Origin: a phage
Length of the DNA: 64,000 nucleotides
Sequence record: PZ386970.1
Direction: 5' to 3' (one strand)
Shown here: piece by piece, positions 15,275-21,984 of the stretch
How the letters are laid out: each line of letters begins with the position of its first letter
Position numbering within the stretch: the stretch's first letter is position 1
Made by a program: the position numbers and the translations under genes
Notes under the pieces: generated by a model
What the model was told of the DNA's origin: nothing
The model's database searches: none
Seen by the model: only the letters and a program-made list of their open reading frames with translations

Positions 15275-15534
15275 TTAAAATATTCTCGCAGTTGGTCAAA
15301 TCCACCAATGTGACTTCCGTCAGGAGCAAACACTTGAGGCATAGTCAATCCAACTTGTGATTCACGTCCAAGCTTAACCAGAAGCTCAGCAATTTTCTCA
15401 TCGTCGAACACACCTTTTTCTGGCATAACATTAATGAATTCGAATGGCTGTTTCTTAACAGTCAGCAATCGTTTCGCATTATCACAATAAATGCATTTAT
15501 GAATAGTAGAGTCATACCCGTACACTTTAAACAT
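15271..15534 (-). CDS. nrdC: thioredoxin/glutaredoxin NrdC
   Basis: MFKVYGYDSTIHKCIYCDNAKRLL... with CxxC active site; matches T4 NrdC as recalled; start moved to MFKVYG. Confidence 0.85.
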   Translation of the reverse strand: MFKVYGYDSTIHKCIYCDNAKRLLTVKKQPFEFINVMPEKGVFDDEKIAELLVKLGRESQVGLTMPQVFAPDGSHIGGFDQLREYFK

Positions 15535-15940
15535 TATTTTTCCTTTCATCGATTAAATATGCAATGCCAAATACAATACATGTAATAAAACCTGTGATAC
15601 AGATAGAAACCAACAACACTGTACCAAAGAACCAAATCAAGTTATCTTTAGTAGTTTGTTTGATATCCATCTCACGAATTTCTATAGCTATCGTATCACC
15701 TTTATTCAGAAGCGTATAAAACGATGGTGATACATGCCTGTCAAAAACTCGACCTTGTTCATCTTTATAAACTGCAATAAATTCCAATTTAGAATATTTT
15801 CCTGTAGATTGGCCTGAGATTAATTCCACTACCTCCACAGGAATTACTTTAGTTTCCATGTAAGTATTCTGGCTGTTCCAAATGAATGGAATGATGGCAA
15901 AAACTAAAGCTGCGATAAAACAACGAAGGCTATATCTCAT
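15527..15940 (-). CDS. hypothetical membrane protein
   Basis: 137 aa with N- and C-terminal hydrophobic helices. Confidence 0.4.
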   Translation of the reverse strand: MRYSLRCFIAALVFAIIPFIWNSQNTYMETKVIPVEVVELISGQSTGKYSKLEFIAVYKDEQGRVFDRHVSPSFYTLLNKGDTIAIEIREMDIKQTTKDNLIWFFGTVLLVSICITGFITCIVFGIAYLIDERKNNV

Positions 15941-16245
15941 TATAATGTTCTCTCAAATTTGTGGAAGCATTTACGGCATTTCAATTTCAAGTTATCAGTG
16001 GTCCAGTTAACCAGTTGGACTTGGATAGTTCCACATTCCGGGCATGGGTGTTTTGCTGCCGATTTGGCAGCATTTTCACGTCGTTCAACCATTTTCATTA
16101 TTTCGTTCCATGCCGGAGGAACGAACTCTTCTTCACCGTGGATTTTATCTCGCTGAACAAATTCAATCTTTGAACTATCGTCAATAAACTTAACCAAGCC
16201 ATGATTAGTGCTCATATCAATATCCTCTAAAAGACGTAGTTTCAT
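15940..16245 (-). CDS. hypothetical zinc-ribbon protein
   Basis: 101 aa with CPEC...CRKC (Cx2C-x20-Cx2C) near the C-terminus. Confidence 0.45.
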   Translation of the reverse strand: MKLRLLEDIDMSTNHGLVKFIDDSSKIEFVQRDKIHGEEEFVPPAWNEIMKMVERRENAAKSAAKHPCPECGTIQVQLVNWTTDNLKLKCRKCFHKFERTL

Positions 16246-17192
16246 TATAACACCTCAATGGCATTTCGTAAACCGTCCGCTTTCGCATTCAGAGCTTTTA
16301 ACGATTTAGTCTGTTCTTTAATCTGGGCTTCGACTTCTTTCAGACGAGATTTGAGGTACTCACGTTCTTCGCTCAAGTTGTCAACTTTTTCTACTTTAGG
16401 TTCTTTAATAGTCTTAAGTTTATACTCGTTAGGGTTCTTCAGCTTAATTCGGGTGCGAGAACTGAATAACATTGAACCGTTATCTTCGGATTCGTCGAAC
16501 GTTTCAACAACATCCATAGTCTCTAACAATGTAATAAGTTTATAAGACAACGAACGAATAGTTTTGTTGTGCTTATTAATTTCTTCGGCTTTCATGGTAC
16601 CGAGATTACGTGAGTAATAATAAGGAACCTGGATATTAATTGATAATGATGCGTTACCATTACCGGTTGGTTTGAATACTGCAGTAACCCAATCTTTAAC
16701 ATGAACTTTATTTGTACGACCATCACCACCTGTGAATAATTTACGAGAATGTTTAAAAAGCATATTCACTTGGTTATTGAATTCACAAGCAAATTTATCA
16801 GCAAATTTAGTTTCAGGAATGGTAGAGAACCAATCGGCTAAATGGGTCTTTTTAACATCGTTAATAATAGTAAATTCAACTAAATCTGATTTAGATTCCA
16901 CTGATTTGAAGCATGGCTTCATAAAGTTTTTAATATTATCGCGAGCTACAGTAGAAGATAATAAACGAGAACGTTTGAACCATTGAAGCAGTGTCCCTAA
17001 TGAATGAGAATACGCATTCTGAGTATCTTTACAGATATGATTTTCTTGGTCTGTGTATGTACCAAAATCTCGAAGAATACCACTTACTACATCTCGGTGT
17101 GGAACATCAAATCCTAGTGTACCAGTGGCGCGCTGAGCATGAACGTTAGCGATAAGACCGGCAAAGTATTCAATGTAATGTGAACGTGTCAT
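16245..17192 (-). CDS. hypothetical protein with C-terminal coiled coil
   Basis: 315 aa; C-terminal 60 aa are heptad-like and charged (LKSRLKEVEAQIKEQTKSLKAL); no catalytic motif recognised. Confidence 0.5.
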   Translation of the reverse strand: MTRSHYIEYFAGLIANVHAQRATGTLGFDVPHRDVVSGILRDFGTYTDQENHICKDTQNAYSHSLGTLLQWFKRSRLLSSTVARDNIKNFMKPCFKSVESKSDLVEFTIINDVKKTHLADWFSTIPETKFADKFACEFNNQVNMLFKHSRKLFTGGDGRTNKVHVKDWVTAVFKPTGNGNASLSINIQVPYYYSRNLGTMKAEEINKHNKTIRSLSYKLITLLETMDVVETFDESEDNGSMLFSSRTRIKLKNPNEYKLKTIKEPKVEKVDNLSEEREYLKSRLKEVEAQIKEQTKSLKALNAKADGLRNAIEVL

Positions 17193-17220
17193 AATATTTT
17201 CCTCTCGTTAAGATAGATTT

Positions 17221-17249
17221 ATTATACTCCAACCATCCTTGGTTGTACA
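17221..17249 (-). promoter_or_regulatory. T4-type early promoter (-35 TGTACA, -10 TATAAT)
   Basis: Minus strand TGTACA-17 nt-TATAAT, 30 nt upstream of the ORF starting at 17192. Confidence 0.45.
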
Positions 17250-18245
17250 TCATTCCTTAAGAAGTTTTACTACTTGAATAAGATTAGCTCGTTCTGTTTT
17301 ATTTTTACCGTTCAATCCGGCCAGTCGCGAGATTTCATCGTCAATCTGTTGAATAGTTACATTAAGTTCGTTAATCAAAGCTTCAAAGTATTTGATTTGC
17401 TCAGCATGTTTTGATTCAAATTTCTGAACCGGAATAACGTCTTGGTTCAGTTCATCAATAAGGTCTTTAAGAGCATCTTCTTGGTTGATATCGTATTCAA
17501 CTTCTTTTATTTCTTCAACGAGCTCGTCTTTATATCTAACGTCTTTTAGTCCTGAAGCTGGTCCTGAAATCTCTTCTTTAAGAGTACAAACATATCCAAT
17601 ACGGTATCCAATGCCGTCTCGCTTGATATCAACTTCGTCGATAAATCCACAATGTTTAAGCCCGGAGCCAATTAGGTCAAAATATCCTTGACGTCGTCCT
17701 TCAAACGTTACACGAACTACTAAGACAGTTTTACCTGCAACCTTTTGAAGCTCACATTTATAAAAGTCAGTTGAACCTGAATAACGTGGATGAGTTTTAA
17801 AGTTCATCTGACGATCTAGACCCATTTGTAAACGTGCTGATACGGCCAGAAAACGTGTTTGGTTCTCGTTAAGATGAGCAACAATCCATTTCAAAGGCAT
17901 TTTACCCTGTTCACGGCCGAACAAATCAGTACGTCCTAAATTACGCAGGATATTGTTAGAGTTAATCATCGACAGAACGTTAAGTTTATTCAGCGCGCTG
18001 AAGATTCCATCAGCCATTGATTTTCCATAACCTTTACACGCTTTAATAAGTGCTCGCGGCAGATTAGTATAGATTTCAGACGGCATATGAAAATCAAATT
18101 TACTAGTCAGTAATTGATGAACTTGGATAGCAATTTGTTCATAATTAAGTGCTCTGCGATCATTATGGTCTTTAAACCACACTTTAATCTGTGAAGCACA
18201 TAAACCGTTAATTTCATGTTTTACCGCATCAGATGTAATGCTCAT
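17250..18245 (-). CDS. hypothetical protein with C-terminal coiled coil
   Basis: 331 aa; C-terminal about 90 aa acidic coiled-coil-like; same architecture as the neighbouring 315 aa protein. Confidence 0.5.
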   Translation of the reverse strand: MSITSDAVKHEINGLCASQIKVWFKDHNDRRALNYEQIAIQVHQLLTSKFDFHMPSEIYTNLPRALIKACKGYGKSMADGIFSALNKLNVLSMINSNNILRNLGRTDLFGREQGKMPLKWIVAHLNENQTRFLAVSARLQMGLDRQMNFKTHPRYSGSTDFYKCELQKVAGKTVLVVRVTFEGRRQGYFDLIGSGLKHCGFIDEVDIKRDGIGYRIGYVCTLKEEISGPASGLKDVRYKDELVEEIKEVEYDINQEDALKDLIDELNQDVIPVQKFESKHAEQIKYFEALINELNVTIQQIDDEISRLAGLNGKNKTERANLIQVVKLLKE

Positions 18246-18307
18246 AACTATTTCCTCAGATTGAATTGGAACTCAAAACCATTATAACCCGTCCTTGGGT
18301 AAAGCGT

Positions 18308-18835
18308 TTATGCGTGAACCGACTTTAAACGTTCTTCAAATTTCCGAAGAGTACTAATACGTTCTGCTTTCTGTTTTGTGTAGTTTGCAATACGTTCTGA
18401 AGTGAGAGCGTATCGTTCGTTTACTGATTCTTTCATGAAGTCAGGGATTTCACGAGAAGCTTTAATTTCATCAAACTTATCGAGTACTGCCTGGTCTTCA
18501 GCAATTAAATTTTCGTACATCTCGATATCTTTCTTGATGAAGTCGATATCTTCCTGGGTTACTTTGGATAAACGAGATGCTTTATCCTTTTTGTACTGCT
18601 CGTTAGTTTCACGAGACCAGAATAATGTACGTTTTTTATTAGTGTTTTTGTAGACTTCCACAATTCCAACTGAATCGATGATAACAATCCAATTCCAGCG
18701 AGATTTGAAAATCTGACCTCCATCCACGGTAATCTCGTTACCATAAGCAACGTCATTAAAGAACTTGCTCTGTGCTTCAGATTTAAATTTACCGTCGTTA
18801 TAATTTACCAGGTTGAAAATATCTTTAGCGTTCAT
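18308..18835 (-). CDS. hypothetical protein
   Basis: 175 aa ORF preceded by an early promoter. Confidence 0.5.
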   Translation of the reverse strand: MNAKDIFNLVNYNDGKFKSEAQSKFFNDVAYGNEITVDGGQIFKSRWNWIVIIDSVGIVEVYKNTNKKRTLFWSRETNEQYKKDKASRLSKVTQEDIDFIKKDIEMYENLIAEDQAVLDKFDEIKASREIPDFMKESVNERYALTSERIANYTKQKAERISTLRKFEERLKSVHA

Positions 18836-18862
18836 GTTTTACCTCCAGTAGTTGATAGGTCT

Positions 18863-18891
18863 ATAATAACATAACCATAGACCTTGTAAAC
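18863..18891 (-). promoter_or_regulatory. T4-type early promoter inside palindromic element
   Basis: Minus strand GTTTAC-17 nt-TGT-TATTAT; the -10 sits inside the inverted repeat TAGGTCTAT / ATAGACCT. Confidence 0.5.
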
Positions 18892-18893
18892 AA

Positions 18894-19181
18894 CTAAAAG
18901 AAACTTTTTTCGGTATTTTTTCCACTGAACCAAACCGACTTCGGGTTTTTTTGTAATTTTTCAGATTTAAGTTTCTCTTCCTGTTCTTTCTTATATACAC
19001 CCTTGTCGTACTGGAGCATCTCTATGGCACTCTTTTGCAAACGATCTAAGGTAATTAAGGCTTTAGTTTTTCCTTTCAAGGAAGAGTCCTGGCGAACCTC
19101 CTCGCTATATTGCATTGTAGAACTAACCATACGATGAGCATAGAGTTCGACTGCGGCTTTAATTTTTTGCATAAAATCCAT
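18894..19181 (-). CDS. hypothetical protein
   Basis: 95 aa ORF; overlaps another candidate ORF; weak. Confidence 0.3.
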   Translation of the reverse strand: MDFMQKIKAAVELYAHRMVSSTMQYSEEVRQDSSLKGKTKALITLDRLQKSAIEMLQYDKGVYKKEQEEKLKSEKLQKNPKSVWFSGKNTEKSFF

Positions 19182-19319
19182 AACATATCCTCTTTGATTT
19201 GTACATCATTATTTTTAAATATTTCTATGCCCTCAGTAGGTTCCTGGTGTCCTTCTTTGAGGTAAGCTATATGATTATTCATCTTTATGGCTTTTGTTAC
19301 CTCAGAACTTCCTATAAGC

Positions 19320-20321
19320 TTATTTCAGTAAAGTTACTTCAGAGATTTCCTCCCAACCATCTTTATCAGTTGAAATAAAATCTGCTACATAAAGAGCCGT
19401 ACGTAATGATACATTGCGAAGACGAGATACGTTAGCCTTCATCCAGGACAATGCTTTATACGTTTCTGCATCCGTCAGACCACGTTTCTGCATCATGTCA
19501 GTAGATAATATTACATCTTCAACTCGAACCATAATCTCTTCATTAGAGTGTACTCCAAGGTCGAGATACACTGAACGAGATACTAAAGCTTGAAGGTGCG
19601 GAGCAAGTTTCGAACCACGTTCTAACTCTTTATCGATATCAACGTTTGTAATGAAAACGATAGTACCTTCAAACTCAAATTCTTTATCAATACCCTTATC
19701 ATCGAGATAAGATGACGCAGTACTCCAACAAACTTTGCGTTTATCGCCAGTATCCAATGCTGCTTTAAGAAGGTTCAGGATGTCCATATCCGAGAATACG
19801 TCAACGTCGTCGATTAAGAGAACGCTGTCTGCATCACGGTTGAGCCAAAGTTGTTCGTAAAGGCCAATACCAGAGATTTTGCCATTAATGCTTTTGTATT
19901 TGATGAAACCGTTATCATTAGCATTATTAAGTGCTTTATCCAGAGAATACGTCTTACCAATACCAGCTGCACCTGAAATAATGAGTGAACGAATTTTGCC
20001 ATCGATAATGCCATTCGTCATCATGTTCATTACTTTAAAGCGTTTGTTGATACGAGTTTTCATATCTTCAGTGCTTTCAACAACTGCAACTGGTGATGTC
20101 TCAACTCCTTCCATTACGATGTCTGATTTGAAGACCCATACTCCACGTTCAGAACCATCAATCATAACGAAAATTTTACCATCACCTAAGTGGGAACATT
20201 CAGGATTAAGCTTTGCCGGGAACCATGTCTTTGTGGCAACATAAGAACCAGAGATTTCGTTATTACGATAGATACCTTTTTTGATTTGAACGTTGAACAT
20301 TTTATTCTCCAATTTACTCAT
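19320..20321 (-). CDS. P-loop ATPase (AAA-like)
   Basis: 333 aa; Walker A ISGAAGIGKT and Walker B VLLIDDVD about 50 aa downstream. Confidence 0.6.
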   Translation of the reverse strand: MSKLENKMFNVQIKKGIYRNNEISGSYVATKTWFPAKLNPECSHLGDGKIFVMIDGSERGVWVFKSDIVMEGVETSPVAVVESTEDMKTRINKRFKVMNMMTNGIIDGKIRSLIISGAAGIGKTYSLDKALNNANDNGFIKYKSINGKISGIGLYEQLWLNRDADSVLLIDDVDVFSDMDILNLLKAALDTGDKRKVCWSTASSYLDDKGIDKEFEFEGTIVFITNVDIDKELERGSKLAPHLQALVSRSVYLDLGVHSNEEIMVRVEDVILSTDMMQKRGLTDAETYKALSWMKANVSRLRNVSLRTALYVADFISTDKDGWEEISEVTLLK

Positions 20322-20338
20322 TTCGTTTCGATAGGTCT

Positions 20339-20367
20339 ATAATAACATGTTTAAAGCAAAAGTAAAC
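20339..20367 (-). promoter_or_regulatory. T4-type early promoter
   Basis: Minus strand GTTTAC-17 nt-TGT-TATTAT followed by AGACCTATC, upstream of the ATPase gene. Confidence 0.5.
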
Positions 20368-20369
20368 AA

Positions 20370-20588
20370 TTATTTGCGACGAGATTTTTTGGTAAGAGGT
20401 TGAAAGAACACTGCTTTACCTGCCGGGGTTAAGGTGACTCGTAATGCGTTACCGATTCCTAAGGATGCTTTAACTAGTCCTTTAGCTTTCAGTTCACCGA
20501 ATGCTTGACGTTGGTCTGCATCACGAGTGTTAACCATAAGACCTTTATCACCAGCTTCACGAATCATTTCTAACATTTTGGTTTTCAT
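20370..20588 (-). CDS. hypothetical small protein
   Basis: ORF trimmed to MKTKMLEMIREAG...; basic C-terminus. Confidence 0.4.
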   Translation of the reverse strand: MKTKMLEMIREAGDKGLMVNTRDADQRQAFGELKAKGLVKASLGIGNALRVTLTPAGKAVFFQPLTKKSRRK

Positions 20589-20616
20589 TTTGTTCTCCTC
20601 TTGTTTTGATAGGTCT

Positions 20617-20645
20617 ATAATAACATATCCTAAAAGCATGTACAC
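20617..20645 (-). promoter_or_regulatory. T4-type early promoter
   Basis: Minus strand GTGTAC-17 nt-TGT-TATTAT followed by AGACCTATC. Confidence 0.45.
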
Positions 20646-20664
20646 TACTTTTTAAAAATATTTT

Positions 20665-20696: not shown

Positions 20697-20963
20697 TTAC
20701 TTATCGCACTTAGCAACATAATTAGGCATATCACAGAATACGGAGCGAGTAACTACTCGGCCCTTTGACCATGCTTCAGTTGCTTGTCCTGCCGTGCTAT
20801 TAATATAGCTTGATTTAATGTTCTCAATACCCTGAGAATGTGATGCATTTACCGAACCGTTGGAAGGTGCAGAAGACTGGTTACCACCAGCTCCTGTACC
20901 TGTGGTAGCACCAACAGAGAATGCCATCATTACTGCGAATAAACCAATTACTAATTTTTTCAT
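20697..20963 (-). CDS. small secreted protein (signal peptide)
   Basis: 88 aa; N-terminal MKKLVIGLFAVMMAFSVGA signal-like segment, Gly/Ser/Thr-rich linker, C-terminal Cys pair. Confidence 0.5.
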   Translation of the reverse strand: MKKLVIGLFAVMMAFSVGATTGTGAGGNQSSAPSNGSVNASHSQGIENIKSSYINSTAGQATEAWSKGRVVTRSVFCDMPNYVAKCDK

Positions 20964-20994: not shown

Positions 20995-21984
20995 TTATTT
21001 ATAGTAAGAATTATGATTTTCGAGATAGACTTGCTCAAGGAAATCATCCCAGAAACTCATATCTACTTTTTGTTGCATACCGTTCTTAGCGGCCTGTTCT
21101 GATGCTTGTTCTACCTGGTCAACGATATCTTCTAGGAATTCTTGTACAGTTTTAAACGTATGTTTACCAAGCTTAACATCGAGAATAAATGGAGCATCTT
21201 GAAGTGGGTAAACCAGGTCGCCGGTTTTATAAATTTCCAATAGTTGAAGTCCACCACGACATGCATGACTCAATGCTTTCCAGTCAATACCTTCGTTAGC
21301 TTCTGCCTTACGAGCACGTTCACCGTAGTTCTCTTCCAGTTTAACCAGGATGGCATTGAACTCTTTATTGGTTAACGTGTCTTGGAATTTACGGTCTAAC
21401 AGACTATAGAACGTTTGCTTACCTGTTTTCTCGTTTTCGGTTTCAACCCATGAAGCAAATTCACCTACAGGCAGAACATTCTTCATATGTGATAAACGAA
21501 TTACTGCACCATTATCAAAGTATTGTCCCCATTCATTAGAACGTTTAAGGGCTTGACGAAGAACAGCCAGTCGAGAACCCTTGACACCGTATTTAGAAGC
21601 TTGCTTACGGACATACCCTAAATAAGATTTCATGTTAGTGGTATAGAAACGAGACCTGTTATCTTGAATATACTTCCATACATCAGGCAAATCAGATTTA
21701 ACTACTAGACTTTGTGGAGTGTGAAGCATATCTAATGCGACGGTTTCACCATCCGCAGCTAGTTTAAAGAAATATTTGAGACTATATAACTCATGGTCCA
21801 CGTCGTCTTTTGTGTTCTTAGAAGATGTGTTATTCGTGTTCTTGCTCATATGTTCTTTAACGTTACCGGTCAAGATATCACGAGCATGAGGGACATAAAT
21901 TTCTTTAAAATCGACGTCAGATTCAGGAGTAGACGTTCCATAAAGGTGGCTACCAAAGTAGCCTTTCATAATTGTTTTCATCAT
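20995..21984 (-). CDS. nucleotidyltransferase-fold protein (Pol-beta superfamily)
   Basis: 329 aa; N-terminal GSHLYGTSTPESDVDF fits the hG[GS]-x9-13-DhD motif, with a third acidic residue in the downstream strand ETVALDMLH. Confidence 0.55.
   Translation of the reverse strand: MMKTIMKGYFGSHLYGTSTPESDVDFKEIYVPHARDILTGNVKEHMSKNTNNTSSKNTKDDVDHELYSLKYFFKLAADGETVALDMLHTPQSLVVKSDLPDVWKYIQDNRSRFYTTNMKSYLGYVRKQASKYGVKGSRLAVLRQALKRSNEWGQYFDNGAVIRLSHMKNVLPVGEFASWVETENEKTGKQTFYSLLDRKFQDTLTNKEFNAILVKLEENYGERARKAEANEGIDWKALSHACRGGLQLLEIYKTGDLVYPLQDAPFILDVKLGKHTFKTVQEFLEDIVDQVEQASEQAAKNGMQQKVDMSFWDDFLEQVYLENHNSYYK
20997..21004 (-). promoter_or_regulatory. candidate T4 late promoter (TATAAATA)
   Basis: Exact TATAAATA on the minus strand about 34 nt upstream of the secreted-protein gene start; an 8-mer can occur by chance in AT-rich DNA. 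Confidence 0.3.

Follow-up and report, generated by a model that had tools for sequence, protein, structure and literature searches.

The nrdC.3–nrdC.10 early region of a Mosigvirus-type phage: coiled-coil paralogues as anti-defence candidates beside an AAA+ ATPase

Genetic organization of the nrdC.3–nrdC.10 region

The window analyzed here is a stretch of 64,000 nucleotides of phage DNA (sequence record PZ386970.1), and this work concerns a block of early genes located at positions 16245-20321, all of which are carried by the minus strand. Many Mosigvirus genomes (RB69/ATK47-like T-even coliphages) share 97% identity with this 4,077-bp interval, and 152 of the 609 phage records that match the interval cover at least 80% of it. 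Comparison of its genes with those of T4 (NC_000866) indicates that the block is the nrdC.3–nrdC.10 early region, which belongs to the "nrdC-mobD" hyperplastic or variable early region of T-even phages, here in its Mosigvirus version. A preliminary description of this DNA had reported large early genes without assigned function, encoding proteins of 315, 331, 175 and 333 amino acids (aa), one of them a P-loop ATPase. The four open reading frames (ORFs) and the P-loop (AAA+) ATPase are present. A fifth gene, encoding a 95-aa DUF7203 protein (18894-19181), had been overlooked, and the ATPase gene had been placed last whereas transcription runs through it first. The features of the region are as follows:

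16245-17192, minus strand: w315, 315 aa, orthologue of T4 NrdC.3 (57% identity, E 4e-116; phrog_1435; PF26897 on homologues)
17250-18245, minus strand: w331, 331 aa, T4 NrdC.6 family (29% identity, E 1e-19; phrog_2257; PF26899)
18308-18835, minus strand: 175-aa protein, orthologue of T4 NrdC.8 (83% identity; phrog_2274)
18894-19181, minus strand: 95-aa protein, T4 NrdC.9 family (35% identity; Pfam DUF7203, E 7e-22)
19320-20300, minus strand: ATPase, 326 aa from M8 (the longest ORF, 333 aa, starts at 20321), orthologue of T4 NrdC.10 (78% identity)
20995-21984: NrdC.11, RlaP-type nucleotidyltransferase (Pfam RlaP match), next gene upstream of the ATPase gene
17221-17249, minus strand: PeSL-type (promoter-early stem-loop) early promoter with internal stem-loop (TGTACA-N17-TATAAT; stem CAACC/GGTTG; promoter scan)
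18852-18910, minus strand: early-promoter cassette 5' of nrdC.8 (direct-repeat family D1; promoter-like site 18890-18863)
20328-20386, minus strand: early-promoter cassette 5' of the ATPase gene (TTTACT-N16-TATTAT at 20366-20339; direct-repeat copy)

The genes themselves are already known T4 ORFs. They are orthologues or family members of T4 nrdC.3, nrdC.6, nrdC.8, nrdC.9 and nrdC.10, and their order is kept. Their divergence from T4 is very uneven, ranging from 83% down to 29% identity. Furthermore, the window differs from T4 by the absence of nrdC.4 and nrdC.5 and by the presence of two extra small genes between nrdC.10 and nrdC.11. In comparisons with close relatives, the ratio of non-synonymous to synonymous substitution rates (dN/dS) is 0.02-0.19 over all genes of the block; therefore, all of them are real, constrained coding genes. 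The preliminary description had considered that the proteins might all prove to be nrdC.x homologues with established, unrelated functions: all of them are indeed nrdC.x homologues, and none has an established function. The PHROG assignments of the block proteins correspond only to families of unknown function. Likewise, scans of all five proteins against Pfam, NCBIfam and PADLOC gave nothing significant except DUF7203 for the 95-aa protein, the matches to PADLOC models being at chance level (E 0.0015-0.02).

Relationship of w315 and w331 to T4 NrdC.3, NrdC.4, NrdC.5 and NrdC.6

Our profile comparisons indicate that w315 and w331 are diverged paralogues that belong to one family together with T4 NrdC.3, NrdC.4, NrdC.5 and NrdC.6. 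This relationship is not visible at the pairwise level. Comparison of w315 with w331 by BLAST and by Smith-Waterman alignment with shuffles gave no signal (z = 0.3), and w331 has no BLAST match with T4 nrdC.4 and nrdC.5. Shallow hhalign profiles did not detect homology between w315 and w331 either (E 0.04-0.6). The earlier view that their N-terminal parts are unrelated thus holds for pairwise comparison and does not hold for profile-profile comparison, where homology emerged only once the profiles were broadened with IMG/VR loci. For this purpose, 69 loci around nrdC.10 homologues were collected, and the ORFs of at least 200 aa located downstream of the ATPase gene were clustered. The nrdC.3/nrdC.4 cluster matches the nrdC.5 cluster with an hhalign probability of 97% (E 1.9e-11, 235 columns), and a hidden Markov model iteration seeded with nrdC.5 recruits nrdC.3 and w315. 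Moreover, the merged nrdC.3/4/5 profile matches the nrdC.6/w331 cluster with a probability of 90-92% (E 5e-7; alignments that were built independently gave E 1.7e-6). In a control, we ran the merged profile against each of the 82 other clusters: four stand out (E 1e-7 to 5.5e-5), one being the nrdC.6 cluster and the three others its positional equivalents in loci of Acinetobacter type and in other T4-like loci; the rest have E > 0.006. When the nrdC.3 profile was searched against 1.84 billion representative proteins, it found five matches, which are itself, fragments and one nrdC.4-type protein (E 5.9e-6). Judging from these searches, the NrdC.3/.4/.5/.6 family is real yet extremely narrow.

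The multiple alignment of the family reveals two shared motifs, [F/L]xKxxxLSxxxAxxxLxNF and FxxxFxxNxxxLLxxxxRLxxGDDR, in addition to MDVVE, a PV motif preceding the tail and a terminal LxxAxxxLK. Each member has a fast-evolving N-terminal alpha/beta domain of ~230-260 aa (~255 aa in w315), whose conserved core motifs are the first two of this list, then a linker and a coiled coil, 35-50 aa long, that ends the protein with the LxxAxxxLK motif. In w331, the N-terminal domain is followed by an acidic linker and then by the coiled coil. The coiled coils extend approximately over residues 266-315 of w315 and 277-311 of w331, with heptad scores ~3-3.7 standard deviations above shuffles. The long acidic coiled-coil tails that had been proposed for both proteins do correspond to a heptad-periodic helix in each of them; only the w331 tail is acidic (net charge -9), that of w315 having a net charge of +2. 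In the PDB, the only matches of the family profile are coiled coils of the GCN4/BST2 type. In the AlphaFold2 model of w315, helix 274-314 is the sole confident part (overall predicted local distance difference test score, pLDDT, 50.8), and a Foldseek search of BFVD with this poor model as the query retrieved only the orthologue.

T4 NrdC.6 (275 aa; L002 6067-6894) does not have the C-terminal coiled-coil end (…LLK) that is kept by the other members of the NrdC.6 family (compared with L009 12432-13319) and terminates in an unrelated short sequence. This suggests a frameshift or a truncation within T4 itself.

Early promoters and loss of an nrdC.5-like gene

The preliminary description attributed an early promoter to each gene. 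Canonical-like, repeated early-promoter cassettes do precede the ATPase gene, nrdC.8 and the w315 gene. The element located upstream of the w331 gene is only a shortened remnant with a 12-nt spacer, and nrdC.9 has neither a cassette nor a promoter of its own; this gene is probably co-transcribed with the ATPase gene. Direct-repeat family D1 includes three copies of the cassette (18852-18910, 20328-20386 and 20606-20664). A scan with the promoter consensus alone does not exceed chance (16 sites versus 20.2 ± 4.4 in shuffles); only the repeated cassettes are meaningful.

The element preceding the w315 gene has the features of a PeSL. These cassettes were described as mediators of modular shuffling in T4-type genomes (PMC2839356, PMC4122927). 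As in PeSLs, the window element combines a sigma-70-like early promoter with a stem-loop located between the -35 and -10 boxes, and such repeats precede variable ORFs. PeSLs were described from the RB49/phi1, PST/T4 and nt-1/KVP40 pairs, whereas the present case concerns Mosigvirus and has its own stem sequence. In ATK47 and in an IMG/VR contig (L006), a 319-aa nrdC.5-like gene is found between the 331-aa and 315-aa genes (region coordinates: L001 3951-5029; L006 9794-10872). It is absent from the window, and the ATPase encoded by the IMG/VR contig is 100% identical to that of the window. In both ATK47 and L006, the 319-aa gene is flanked by two early promoters of ~30 bp with the stem-loop CAACC-AAGGAT-GGTTG. 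In the window, the single copy (17221-17249) joins the left and right flanking repeats as an exact hybrid, so that the breakpoints of the indel fall exactly inside the repeat. Furthermore, the PeSL pattern is unique in the window and was found in none of 100 shuffles. The 319-aa gene is kept by ~133 of the ~152 Mosigvirus-type records and is thus polymorphic (present or absent) among phages that are ~97% identical. These comparisons indicate that the window lost its nrdC.5-like gene (or that this gene was gained elsewhere) by recombination between PeSL copies. More generally, the genes of the family behave as cassettes, and their gain and loss takes place through recombination between copies of the early-promoter/stem-loop element. 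We did not find the unification of NrdC.3/.4/.5/.6 or this PeSL-mediated loss stated in the literature searched. The comparison provides a concrete case of gene swapping by recombination at promoter repeats.

Distribution and diversity of the coiled-coil family

The family is limited to T-even-like phages, with one to four tandem copies in 15 loci of Tevenvirinae or Acinetobacter type, and no member was found in Aeromonas, Vibrio and marine T4-like loci. The comparison across T4-like genomes that had been proposed to distinguish core from accessory genes gives two answers: the coiled-coil family is accessory-like, and the ATPase has a near-core distribution. The identity of w315 and w331 to T4 (57% and 29%, respectively) is low compared with the 78-92% observed for nrdC.10, nrdC.11, NrdC and gp49. 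Purifying selection still acts on both genes (dN/dS 0.09-0.19 for w315). Gene-wide positive selection was considered and dismissed (dN/dS 0.08-0.19).

The NrdC.3 alleles fall into discrete classes of identity to the window protein (~96%, 90%, 74% and 56%), even within one genus. For instance, the Tequatrovirus records are divided into the 74% and 56% classes. These allele classes suggest exchange between lineages.

NrdC.10, a predicted AAA+ ATPase

The true start of the ATPase is most likely the second ATG (M8, position 20300): a GGAG Shine-Dalgarno sequence is located 8 nt upstream, and this residue is also the first one of the T4 protein, of all homologues and of the PHROG profile; the protein would thus have 326 aa and not the 333 aa initially proposed. 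The Walker A (GAAGIGKT) and Walker B (LLIDDVD) motifs that had been recognized in it are both invariant across 41 homologues. NrdC.10 is modelled with confidence (pLDDT 88.9): residues 1-64 form an N-terminal beta domain of five strands, which a linker connects to the AAA+ core and its lid (residues 77-326). Besides Walker A and the two aspartates of Walker B, sensor-1 N219, the SRS arginine R242 and R295/R300 are invariant in homologues, and a strongly conserved insert of ~25 residues (188-212) precedes sensor 1. All the hallmarks of the AAA+ superfamily are found, i.e. Walker A and B, sensor 1, arginine finger, sensor 2 and an alpha-beta-alpha core with a helical lid. By its predicted fold and its motifs, NrdC.10 is a catalytically complete AAA+ ATPase.

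The protein stays below the Pfam gathering thresholds (22.1 versus 27 for AAA_22; 20.5 versus 32.6 for AAA_16), and neither the single sequence nor the profile has a significant match among PDB sequences. A marine homologue passes the PF00004 threshold (25.7 versus 21.2). NrdC.10 shares its fold and catalytic motifs with initiator and loader AAA+ proteins (Cdc6/ORC, DnaA, RFC) and with groups that carry a pre-sensor-1 insert (MoxR NorQ/CbbQ, MCM, NtrC), and its best sequence matches, all weak, are Cdc6, AAA_22, AAA_16 and a clamp-loader PHROG. However, it is not a significant sequence member of any of these groups, from which it also differs by its unique N-terminal beta domain and its 25-residue insert. 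As for a clamp loader, T4-like phages already possess gp44/62. Overall, NrdC.10 most likely forms oligomers and serves phage nucleic-acid metabolism as a switch or remodeller driven by ATP.

Homologues of NrdC.10 are encoded by phages of more than 20 host genera, with relatives in jumbo phages and in a Roseobacter siphovirus. In marine T4-like contigs (L022-L039 and others), a gene encoding a UvsW-like helicase lies within 90-480 bp downstream of the nrdC.10 homologue (~33% identity). In some of them an Fe-S assembly (DUF59) gene separates the ATPase and helicase genes, and nrdA/nrdB are located upstream. In a Vibrio-type locus, the ATPase gene is followed by a topoisomerase II subunit gene.

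Putative role of the coiled-coil paralogues in anti-defence

One member of the family has been linked to a host defence system. T4 nrdC.5 is dispensable in MG1655 and was lost from experimentally evolved T4 (PMC9391042). NrdC.5 supplied in trans restores T4 plating on cells that carry Dsr1, a sirtuin (SIR2) defence protein of E. coli ECOR17 (Srikant et al. 2022, PMC9391042). Dsr1 was later reported to be a sensor of the phage major capsid protein (PMC13581612). With T4 NrdC.5, w315 and w331 share family membership (by profile comparison), size, the association of an N-terminal domain with a C-terminal coiled coil, tandem location and early expression context. However, both proteins are less than 20% identical to NrdC.5, whose orthologue is deleted from the window; therefore, their target specificity is probably different.

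In our opinion, the best reading of these data, to which we give a probability of about 0.55, is that w315 and w331 are anti-defence paralogues located beside an independent, conserved AAA+ ATPase, the function of the paralogues being deduced from their relatedness to NrdC.5. Following this homology, w315 and w331 would be made early in infection, would oligomerise through their C-terminal coiled-coil tail and would bind or inhibit host abortive-infection proteins stoichiometrically, with a separate target for each paralogue. The alignment of the family contains no invariant polar residue, which fits a binder better than an enzyme. Furthermore, the tandem copies, the fast divergence from T4 and the presence/absence polymorphism among near-identical phages are the behaviour expected of accessory counter-defence genes. 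An analogy, and only an analogy, can be drawn with DSAD1, an inhibitor of DSR2 from Bacillus phages: this protein binds to a SIR2 NADase of host defence and blocks it, a mechanism that we propose for the NrdC family. The defence or anti-defence flavour suggested in the preliminary description is therefore plausible for the coiled-coil proteins through their homology with NrdC.5, and is unsupported for a module formed by these proteins and the ATPase.

Several points weigh against this proposal. The evidence for anti-defence comes from one paralogue (NrdC.5), one study and a plaque assay only. The homology of w331 to the rest of the family relies on only ~85-90 core columns. The AlphaFold2 model of w315 is too poor (pLDDT ~51) to reveal a common N-terminal fold, and searches of PADLOC, NCBIfam and the PDB gave no match for the N-terminal domains. 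Lastly, dN/dS over the whole genes stays well below 1 and does not demonstrate the signature of an arms race.

Another explanation, which we consider unlikely, is that the coiled-coil proteins take part in host takeover by reprogramming housekeeping targets (nucleoid, RNA polymerase, proteases or membrane), the effect of NrdC.5 on Dsr1 being indirect or a special case. Early expression, the proximity of takeover genes such as pin, which encodes a Lon inhibitor, the lack of similarity to known anti-defence families and purifying selection over the whole gene are consistent with such a role. However, these genes are dispensable in laboratory hosts, and their loss in evolved T4 gives a phenotype specific to one host. 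Moreover, their polymorphism among ~97% identical phages, their narrow phage group and their high divergence fit variable targets better than conserved housekeeping ones.

It is even less probable that the ATPase works with NrdC.11 in a pathway that repairs RNA or counters nucleases, e.g. by remodelling damaged tRNA or ribonucleoproteins. NrdC.11 is the neighbour of NrdC.10 in T-even and Acinetobacter types: its gene is located 70-1376 bp upstream of nrdC.10, in the same orientation, in all 15 Tevenvirinae/Acinetobacter-type loci, and RlaP, the Pfam family that it matches, is tied to phage RNA repair (PMC7824862). However, this pairing is absent from Aeromonas, Vibrio and marine T4-like phages. 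The marine ATPase genes are instead found with nrdA/B and the Fe-S assembly and UvsW-like helicase genes, and the Vibrio-type one beside the topoisomerase subunit gene; the weak sequence signals of the ATPase also point to Cdc6/ORC, AAA_22 and clamp-loader types. Our literature search for a link between RlaP and nrdC.10 found none.

Finally, a single DNA-transaction or anti-defence machine in which the coiled-coil proteins are adaptors or partners of the AAA+ ATPase, as the adjacency and co-orientation of these early genes and the constant position of the family within ~2-5 kb downstream of the ATPase gene could suggest, is very improbable: 1312 phage records encode the ATPase, whereas the two coiled-coil proteins are found in 654 and 742, the Aeromonas, Vibrio and marine T4-like loci carry the ATPase and no family member, the number of family copies varies from one to four, with one copy deleted here beside an unchanged ATPase, the promoters are separate, and the evolutionary rates are strongly different. 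NrdC.10 (dN/dS 0.02-0.08) evolves ~3-6 times more slowly at non-synonymous sites than the coiled-coil proteins. Since it has its own promoter, its own distribution and this low dN/dS, we argue that NrdC.10 fulfils an independent, near-core function and is not a partner of the coiled-coil proteins.

Returning to the anti-defence proposal, a broader and more tentative scenario, which we consider somewhat doubtful, concerns each of the two parts of the block separately. NrdC.3, NrdC.4, NrdC.5 and NrdC.6 would be cassette-exchanged, coiled-coil-anchored inhibitors, each directed against a different host sensor or effector (e.g. Dsr1/Avs7 capsid-sensing variants or other NADase systems), the tail perhaps allowing hetero-oligomers, and NrdC.10 would be an unrecognised near-core AAA+ replication or recombination factor. 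If this is true, the two copies carried by the window would block defence systems that so far have no matched phage inhibitor. T4-like phages are mainstays of both phage biology and phage therapy, and their nrdC.x genes are still labelled "hypothetical". With NrdC.3, NrdC.4, NrdC.5 and NrdC.6 grouped in one family that has a member linked to Dsr1, four orphan genes per genome become testable anti-defence candidates. In addition, our analysis singles out NrdC.10 as a predicted complete AAA+ ATPase found in ~1,300 sequenced phages.

Annotation of nrdC.x genes and other genes of the region

In many GenBank genomes, nrdC.3, nrdC.6, nrdC.8, nrdC.9 and nrdC.10 bear a "thioredoxin" label that was apparently inherited from the prefix of the gene name. 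Likewise, a 2026 paper handles T4 nrdC.8 as a nucleotide reductase because of this prefix. The Pfam scan detected a thioredoxin or reductase domain in none of these nrdC.x proteins.

The 175-aa NrdC.8 protein is conserved and has a helical C-terminal half. It was found in only seven of 75 sources (74 loci and the window), all of them Tequatro-, Mosig- or Dhakavirus. The window also encodes a 137-aa membrane protein at the nrdC.1 position (15527-15940) that is a homologue of T4 NrdC.7 (41% identity). Since T4 nrdC.7 is located between nrdC.6 and nrdC.8, this gene has moved within the variable region. The start codon of the nrdC.2 homologue overlaps the stop codon of the w315 gene, and a promoter-like site (16244-16272, TTTACG-N17-TATAAT with a TG extension) lies within the last codons of the latter, directly 5' of the nrdC.2 homologue.

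The two small genes that separate nrdC.10 from nrdC.11 (20370-20588 and 20697-20963) have no T4 counterpart at this position. One encodes a 72-aa protein (phrog_6001) and has its own promoter cassette; the other encodes an 88-aa protein whose N-terminal segment resembles a signal peptide, and is followed by a terminator-like hairpin (20681-20665).

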